Positions 22,059 to 23,230 of a stretch of DNA of 64,000 bases are shown here, piece by piece. The notes beneath the pieces are model-generated. The model was not told where the DNA came from. It did not search any database and was given only the letters and a program-made list of their open reading frames with translations. The stretch lies in the sequence record PQ666539; one strand, 5' to 3'. A program made the translations under genes and the position numbers. Positions within the stretch are counted from its first letter, which is position 1. Each line of letters starts with the position of its first letter. The DNA is from Shigella phage sb1.

Positions 22059-23230
22059 GTATGTTGCAACGCCCAGGATATCCAAATCTCAGCGTTAAAT
22101 TATTTGATAGCTACGACGCTTGGAGTAATAATAGATTTGTTGAATTAGCTGCTACTATTACCACATTAACTATGCGGGATTCTCTTTATGGCCGAAATGA
22201 AGGAATGTTGCATTTTTATGATTCTAAAAATATCCATACAAAAATGGATGGAAATGAAATAATTCAGATTTCTGTAGCTAATGCAAACGATATTAATAAT
22301 GTTAAAACACGAATTTATGGATGCAAGCATTTTTCCGTGTCAGTAGATTCAAAGGGTGATAACATCATTGCTATTGAATTGGGAACTATTCATTCTATAG
22401 AAAATCTTAAATTTGGCAGACCGTTTTTCTCTGATGCAGGTGAATCTATAAAGGAAATGCTTGGTGTCATTTATCAGGATCGCACGTTATTAACTCCAGC
22501 AATAAATGCCATAAATGCTTATGTTCCTGATATTCCATGGACTAGCACATTTGAAAACTATTTGTCGTATGTCAGAGAAGTTGCTCTAGCTGTAGGAAGT
22601 GACAAATTTGTATTTGTGTGGCAAGACATCATGTGAGTTAACATGATGGACTATGATATGATGATAAATCAAGAACCGTATCCAATGATTGTCGGTGAGC
22701 CATCTTTAATAGGTCAATTCATCCAAGAATTAAAATATCCATTAGCATATGATTTCGTTTGTTTGACTAAATCGAATCCTCATAAACGCGACCCAATGAA
22801 AAACGCTACTATCTATGCGCATTCATTTTTAGATTCTTCATTGCCAATGATTACTACAGGAAAGGGCGAAAACTCTATTGTAGTGTCAAGGTCAGGTGCT
22901 TATTCTGAAATGACTTATAGGAATGGATATGAAGAATCTATTCGTCTTCAAACTATGGCACAATACGATGGCTATGCTAAATGTTCTACTGTCGGTAATT
23001 TTAACTTGACTCCTGGAGTTAAAATTATTTTTAATTATAGTAAAAAACAATTTAAAAAAGAATTTTACGTTGATTAAGTTATCCATGAATTATCCAATAA
23101 TAATTCAGTAACTCATCTATATATGTTCACTAATGCAACGAAACTGGAAACAATAGACCCAGTTAAGGTTAAAAATGAATTTAAATCTGATACTACCACT
23201 GAAGAAAGTAGTTCTTCCAATAAGCAATAA
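22055..23230 (+). CDS. 27: Baseplate hub protein gp27, interrupted by in-frame TGA (22634-22636) and TAA (23075-23077)
   Basis: Same-frame pieces total 391 codons, the T4 gp27 length. Confidence 0.85.

Follow-up and report, generated by a model that had tools for sequence, protein, structure and literature searches.

An in-frame TGA in baseplate hub gene 27 of the Shigella phage sb1 record is very probably a data-quality artefact within an unselected G:C>T:A overlay

Introduction

A stop codon in the middle of the gene for an essential baseplate protein may be a codon with a new meaning, the seam of a split protein, a mark of gene decay or an error in the record. This question is raised by a stretch of 64,000 nucleotides from Shigella phage sb1 (PQ666539), referred to here in its entirety as the window. 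A first-pass annotation of the letters alone had flagged an in-frame TGA in baseplate hub gene 27 as the first of two stops in that gene and had read it as a change from GGA. Here, the flagged codon is placed in its gene, in the other genes of the window and in the records deposited with it, and the explanations that could account for it are weighed.

Results

The Window Is a T4-like Genome Segment

The window covers part of the genome of a Tequatrovirus (T4-like, Straboviridae), from gene 14 to gene 37. It encodes head and tail proteins and includes the hub gene cluster of the baseplate, alt, the ligase gene, the region pseT-nrd-td-frd-32 and the genes for the long tail fibres (34-37), in the order found in phages Ec_YwIITB1, Ec_MI-02, pSs-1 and T4. 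The best matches among 50,697 phage records reach only 96-97% identity over 24 kb, and Shigella phages sb2, sb3 and sb4 (PQ666540-42), from Kolkata lake water, are among the closest relatives. The base counts of the window (A=20530, T=20530, C=11720, G=11220) are odd in that A equals T exactly and all four are multiples of ten, which is probably a coincidence.

Gene 27 Is Interrupted Twice by Single-Base Changes

The features of gene 27 that are discussed below are as follows.

22055..23230, + strand: gene 27, baseplate hub/central spike complex protein gp27; 391 codons, interrupted twice
22213, + strand: private G>T, Q53H, from comparison with relatives
22634..22636, + strand: flagged TGA, codon 194; ancestral GGA (Gly), G>T at 22634
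22762, + strand: private G>T missense change, W236C, from comparison with relatives
22937, + strand: private G>T missense change, A295S, from comparison with relatives
23036, + strand: G>T missense change, D328Y, in common with sb4
23075..23077, + strand: second in-frame stop, TAA, codon 341; ancestral GAA (Glu), G>T at 23075

The identification of the gene as gene 27 is borne out on several counts. With both stops read through, its translation aligns from residue 1-391 to residue 1-391 of T4 gp27 (PDB 1K28 chain D, E=5.9e-258). Two of its open reading frame pieces match Pfam families PF09097 (E=1e-133) and PF09096 (E=2e-93), which correspond to gp27 domains 1 and 2. Genes annotated in Ec_MI-02, pSs-1 and T4, once projected onto the window, give the gene order 51-27-28-29, and the position of the gene in the hub cluster 26/51-27-28-29-48-54 is kept. 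Nucleotide identity to the intact gp27 genes of 506 Tequatrovirus records is 98.7%. The window gene is orthologous to that of T4 over its full length, with the same gene order and ∼97% protein identity, and the alignment to the 391-residue T4 protein that had been proposed as a check runs end to end.

The TGA is present where it had been reported. The + strand around it reads GTG TGG CAA GAC ATC ATG TGA GTT AAC ATG ATG GAC, and the TGA is codon 194 of the frame that opens with the ATG at 22055 and ends naturally at 23228-23230. It is indeed followed by a second stop, the TAA at codon 341. Codon 194 is GGA in eight aligned relatives and GGC in T4, so that glycine is encoded in nine of nine, as the proposed GGA to TGA change requires; codon 341 is GAA in all nine. 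The T4 protein (PDB 1K28_D) accordingly carries Gly194 and Glu341. The bases that flank the TGA are identical to those of relatives with GGA, and a 71-base query centred on codon 194 matched none of 494 phage records in full, with 70/71 as the highest score. Neither of the two stops occurs in any relative. Given the glycine codon in the relatives, the lack of an exact 71-base match in those records and the full-length gp27 alignment, the TGA is a genuine one-base G>T difference private to this sequence, and its frame and coordinates were read correctly. A sense codon in a reference alignment, which the first-pass annotation had named as evidence against its call, is what was found: the observation of a TGA stands, and any view of it as a conserved feature does not, as it is a derived private change.

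Unlike T4 gp27, the window frame has stops at codons 194 and 341, and four more private G>T changes in it are missense. The six private G>T changes of gene 27 (Q53H, G194*, W236C, A295S, D328Y and E341*) are without exception non-synonymous and two of them are stops, where random G:C>T:A change would give ∼4.9 changes and 0.57 nonsense codons. An uninterrupted full-length frame for the four-domain gp27 is not present in the window and is intact in nine of nine aligned relatives.

A functional gp27 made in two pieces by reinitiation was considered and rejected. The ATG at 22643 that would serve as the restart is present with identical flanks in all relatives, and the second piece is itself cut at codon 341.

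Stops of the Same Kind Break 21 Other Genes

When the annotated genes of Ec_MI-02 were projected onto the window and internal stops were counted, gene 27 proved to be one of many interrupted genes. There are 32 in-frame stops in 22 of 73 genes (28 in 21 of 72 genes, plus four in gp34). Nearly all arise by GAA>TAA, GGA>TGA or GAG>TAG, and a few by TCA>TAA or TAC>TAA. Read on the coding strand, and irrespective of the DNA strand on which the gene lies, the stop-making changes are nearly all G>T or C>A, and there are no transitions among them. Two start codons have been lost by the same process. These features, outside gene 27, are listed below.

575..577, + strand: gp15 start loss, ATG>ATT (G>T)
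1858..1860, + strand: terS codon 153, GAA>TAA
2975..2977, + strand: terL codon 366, GGA>TGA
3461-3463, + strand: terL second stop, codon 528, GAA>TAA
4125..4127, + strand: tail sheath gp18 codon 128, GAA>TAA; in common with Shigella phage sb2
10042..10044, + strand: gp22 codon 25, TCA>TAA
10312-10314, + strand: gp22 second stop, codon 115, GAA>TAA
11617..11619, + strand: major capsid gp23 codon 274, TTA>TAA; the sole stop from a T>A change
19075..19077, + strand: uvsW.1 codon 11, GAA>TAA
20141..20143, - strand: uvsY codon 8, GAA>TAA
21609..21611, + strand: gp51 codon 102, GAA>TAA
23897..23899, + strand: gp29 codon 65, GGA>TGA
25684..25686, + strand: gp48 codon 67, TAC>TAA
27586..27588, - strand: alt.-3 codon 93, TCA>TAA
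29449..29451, - strand: alt-like paralogue codon 178, GAG>TAG
39687..39689, - strand: cd.2 codon 22, GAA>TAA
39750-39752, - strand: cd.2 start loss, ATG>ATT (G>T)
43017..43019, - strand: Rz (pseT.3) codon 29, GAA>TAA; in common with sb4
43196..43198, - strand: alc codon 135, GAG>TAG
43382-43384, - strand: alc second stop, codon 73, GAG>TAG
43665..43667, - strand: rnlA codon 374, TAC>TAA
44238-44240, - strand: rnlA codon 183, GAA>TAA
44391-44393, - strand: rnlA codon 132, GGA>TGA
48397..48402, - strand: nrdA codons 124-125, tandem GAAGAA>TAATAA; change at 48399 in common with sb4
53210..53212, - strand: gp32 (ssDNA-binding protein) codon 9, GAA>TAA
56717..56719, + strand: gp34 codon 371, TCA>TAA
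56786-56788, 57647-57649 and 59156-59158, + strand: other gp34 stops
60109..60111, + strand: gp35 codon 209, GAA>TAA
61230..61232, + strand: gp36 codon 190, TCG>TAA

A phage with these breaks in terS, terL, gp18, gp22, gp23, gp51, gp27, gp29, gp48, gp32 and gp34-36 could form no plaques. The internal stops of the 72-gene set comprise 21 TAA, 4 TGA and 3 TAG, in agreement with the 71%, 18% and 11% expected from the usage of the codons that G:C>T:A change can convert (GAA, TCA and TAC to TAA, GGA and TGC to TGA, GAG and TCG to TAG).

The mixture of stop types bears on whether the gene 27 TGA could be read as sense, by a code in which UGA specifies Gly (code 25) or Trp (code 4), by programmed readthrough or as selenocysteine, so that gp27 would be made at full length. 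Each of the four TGAs inside genes of the 72-gene set (terL 366, gp27 194, gp29 65 and rnlA 132) replaces a GGA glycine codon, and the in-frame TGAs of code 25 phages likewise align with the Gly codons of relatives. However, GGA>TGA is the main route from a G>T change to TGA, and the coincidence with glycine is a by-product of it. The genes of the window are interrupted by TAA and TAG as well, the codons replaced encode Glu, Gly, Ser, Tyr and Leu, and in gp27 a second stop of another type lies 147 codons downstream. TGA is also an ordinary terminator here: the natural terminators are 49 TAA, 18 TGA and 4 TAG, and gene 51, immediately upstream, ends on a TGA (22056..22058, + strand) that overlaps the ATG of gene 27 (ATGA). 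A TGA at codon 194 of gp27 occurs in none of 494 relatives. No tRNA gene was found in the 64-kb window, the T4-type tRNA cluster lying outside it, and an Rfam scan of 22300-23300 at E≤1 gave no SECIS or recoding element and only a chance snoRNA match. At least 10 ordinary tRNAs are listed in the sibling study (PMC11993411). The hosts, Shigella and E. coli, use the standard code. The window differs from recoded phages in its mixed internal stop types, its TGA terminators, the absence of its stops from relatives and the absence of a suppressor tRNA within its bounds. There is virtually no chance that the TGA is translated; because all three stop types occur internally and TGA is the normal terminator of 18 genes, recoding is excluded.

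In the same region, the natural TAA of gene 51 is CAA in the window through a T>C transition (22053-22058), and gene 51 ends one codon later. The start codon of gp34 is lost as well, by ATG>CTG (55607-55609, + strand).

G:C>T:A Changes Alone Are Free of Selection

Substitutions were scored as private where the window differs at columns at which five compared relatives agree. There are 821 such substitutions, and 277 of them (34%) are G:C>T:A, a load of ∼1.2% of all G:C pairs in the window. In the independent relatives Ec_YwIITB1, Ec_MI-02, pSs-1 and T4, the G:C>T:A share is 4-10%.

Across 73 genes, the G:C>T:A changes comprise 21 synonymous, 191 missense and 29 nonsense changes, and unselected G:C>T:A mutation of the same codons predicts 21.2, 191.1 and 28.5 (chi-square p=0.995). 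Pooled, the remaining classes give 336 synonymous versus 133 non-synonymous changes, and the contrast with G:C>T:A is extreme (Fisher p=7e-63). These other classes are rich in synonymous changes (64-85% for transitions) and essentially without nonsense, which leaves G:C>T:A as the only unselected class in the window. Two "nonsense" counts, in pseT and td, are an artefact of scoring single changes in codons with two differences; both genes are intact.

The G:C>T:A changes are spread across the entire 64 kb. Their spacing is near-Poisson, with four gaps of ≤5 bases versus 3.8 expected, and the gap distribution over the window revealed no clustering. On the + strand there are 135 G>T and 142 C>A changes. 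On the coding strand the ratio is 135:106, a split that matches the one between G and C content (56.0% for the changes versus 55.4%), and no transcription-strand bias was found. Around the changed sites, enrichment was seen neither at any position within ±3 nor for any trinucleotide, the dependence on local GC is weak, and the window genes have no excess of frameshifts or indels beside the changes. Context-specific base-calling error, of the kind expected at glucosyl-hydroxymethyl-C or homopolymers, and long-read-type error were rejected on the same three grounds of context, GC effect and indels. A few of the shared C>A events do lie at the end of A-runs.

The neutral 21/191/29 split, set against the strong purification of the other classes, shows that the window is a T4-like genome that has evolved normally, on which random G:C>T:A changes never exposed to selection are superimposed.

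Two Sibling Records Carry a Related Overlay

The four phage genomes were prepared as Twist enzymatic libraries, sequenced on a NovaSeq 6000 and assembled with SKESA (PMC11993411). Per conserved G:C site, the G:C>T:A rate is 1.17% in the window, 0.76% in sb4, 0.19% in sb3 and 0.16% in sb2, and 0.03-0.35% in other relatives. As a share of private changes, G:C>T:A is raised in sb2 (0.19), though its rate is not; in sb3 (0.07) neither is raised. The signature is thus associated with the batch, with the rate up in the window and in sb4.

The sb4 record has 117-121 private G:C>T:A changes, with 7 synonymous, 78 missense and 22 nonsense. Within positions 1-50000 of PQ666542.1, the genes gp14, gp15, terS, gp24, uvsW, gp26, gp27, gp28, gp48, alt, ligase, rnlA and nrdA are fragmented. 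In sb2 (PQ666540.1, 4240-6063), gp18 lies in three pieces, separated by two G:C>T:A nonsense codons: the same TAA128 as in the window and, further on, a TGC>TGA. Some of the window events recur in the siblings, about ten in sb4 and six in sb2, on different haplotypes. They include TAA128 of gp18 (4125, with sb2) and, with sb4, D328Y of gp27 (23036), TAA29 of Rz and the nrdA TAA (48399); three shared changes fall inside 28 bp at 43015-43042.

The sb4 and sb2 records are similar to the window in phage group, lake and sequencing workflow (PMC11993411), and also in their broken essential genes, the unselected G:C>T:A excess and some identical nonsense codons. Compared with them, the window has the highest load and a distinct mosaic genotype, ∼96% identical to both. 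In the published genome statistics (PMC11993411), the order of G+C content parallels the measured overlay rates: 35.16% with 285 predicted proteins for ADG1 (PQ666539), 35.35% with 291 for TMC4 (PQ666542), 35.49% with 254 for AKR2 (PQ666540) and 35.52% with 255 for CRD3 (PQ666541).

The identical changes in sb2 and sb4 on other haplotypes are not what a purely random error in each sample would predict. The shared events suggest partial site specificity, read sets that were not independent, mixed lysates or very low effective depth.

Discussion

The TGA in gene 27 is very probably a data-quality artefact, one of roughly 280 G:C>T:A changes, and carries no functional signal. Since the same unselected overlay breaks 21 other genes, no biological meaning in terms of recoding, a split gene or a pseudogene is left, and in the real phage gp27 is almost certainly intact, with Gly194 and Glu341 in place. 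The sequence of events can be proposed as follows. One random event of the overlay would have placed a T at the first base of the Gly194 codon GGA. The changes probably arose after the last round of phage replication, as they bear no trace of purifying selection, and their source would lie in the production of the sequence, whether in a damaged template, in base calling or in a thinly supported consensus or assembly. We infer that a laboratory or informatic step lies behind the overlay.

In two-colour Illumina chemistry, a spurious green-channel signal would give G read as T and C read as A. G:C>T:A is also the classic outcome of guanine oxidation (8-oxoG) during sample handling (PMC3616734). 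The overlay resembles the 8-oxoG artefacts described previously (Costello et al., 2013, PMC3616734; Chen et al., bioRxiv 10.1101/070334) in being exclusively G:C>T:A, indifferent to coding, tied to a batch and non-biological. In contrast, the published artefacts show read-orientation bias and sit at low allelic fraction (PMC3616734), whereas the changes in the window are fixed in the consensus at ∼1.2% of G:C pairs, lack a context preference and are partly in common with sibling assemblies. Artefacts of low fraction should not reach the consensus at the depth normal for phage sequencing, so that this explanation presupposes very low depth, a bottleneck of template molecules or a fault of the assembler. 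Fixation at the consensus level argues against a simple case of oxidation artefact, and the enzymatic rather than acoustic fragmentation of DNA in the sibling study (PMC11993411) also counts against it.

Changes at the consensus level arise more easily from true changes in the template than from read errors, and some of them are in common with sb2 and sb4, as if related molecules had occurred in several lysates. It could be supposed, then, that the stops are true mutations in existing phage DNA, from a non-viable or defective population, a mixed lysate in which genomes complement each other, or a background with a G>T mutator. This is improbable. The neutral ratio of synonymous, missense and nonsense changes implies that no replication under selection has taken place since the changes arose, while purifying selection is normal in the remaining substitution classes, which are essentially free of nonsense. 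No stable complementation could make good ∼32 nonsense codons in 64 kb that affect the terminase, the capsid, the sheath, the hub, gp32 and the tail fibres, and Shigella is reported to have been the host on which the phages were isolated and propagated (PMC11993411). A more specific form, in which the G>T changes are real lesions, is very improbable too: either virions from the lake or from storage were heavily guanine-oxidised and few templates were sequenced, so that ∼1% of G became fixed as T, or defective genomes complemented each other in mixed T4-like lysates, from which nonsense codons common to the siblings would follow.

The near-perfect fit to a uniform random model (p=0.995) and the independence from context would also be expected if the sequence had been altered in silico, deliberately or by a faulty polishing or consensus script that introduced G>T/C>A at ∼1% of G:C. 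The exact sequence was not found in viral, genome and metagenome contig collections, in a gene-position index, or among E. coli genomes and plasmids, a look-up of the 193-aa gp27 fragment as an exact protein gave no match, and the round base counts (A=T=20530) would suit such a procedure. Within the window alone, this corruption would look the same. The sibling records, however, make it unlikely, and we regard it as a slender prospect: the same unselected class, with specific events in common, is present in the independently deposited sb4 and sb2, and the published G+C and gene-count anomalies of PQ666539 fit the window. The overlay is thereby linked to an actual data set and not to editing after the fact.

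An artefact of sequence production thus remains the preferred explanation, and the phage gives no evidence of recoding, of a hub protein in two parts or of pseudogenisation. The TGA itself is biologically unimportant; its main value is as a warning about the PQ666539 record and its siblings. The fragmentation of about 30% of the window genes is false, as are roughly 190 missense changes across 73 genes. The overlay depresses G+C and inflates gene counts. Comparative or therapeutic-safety conclusions drawn from such records would be affected. The test of synonymous, missense and nonsense changes for each substitution class offers a quick flag for such assemblies that needs no reads.

Other Features of the Window

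Breaks of another origin occur in one of the relatives. In Ec_YwIITB1 (PQ356294.1), gp23, hoc and nrdB are split and frd is shortened by small frameshifting indels, not G>T stops; this is a different kind of assembly error.

Several features of gene content were also apparent. An extra open reading frame of ∼205-218 aa lies between genes 18 and 19 (5724-6380, + strand); pSs-1 and the sb phages have it and T4 lacks it, and it gave no Pfam match. The hoc gene (15349-16767, - strand) encodes 472 aa versus 376 aa in T4, with PKD/Ig-like domain matches that are in keeping with one additional Ig-like repeat. The alt (ADP-ribosyltransferase) gene is present as two full-length paralogues in tandem (27925-32040, - strand), the first copy being broken by the TAG at 29449-29451, whereas T4 has one alt and the remnants alt.-1 and alt.-2. 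The T4 mobile elements segD, segE, mobE and the nrdB intron with I-TevIII are absent (12363-12447, 17457-17508, 45277-48771 and 49329-50189). The nrdB gene is contiguous in the window, and td aligns without interruption to the contiguous td of Ec_MI-02. The distal part of gene 37, which encodes the receptor-recognising tip of the tail fibre (63322-63941, + strand), does not align to Ec_MI-02, and the part of gp37 that does align is only 83% identical, with many small indels, as is usual for this hypervariable host-range region.
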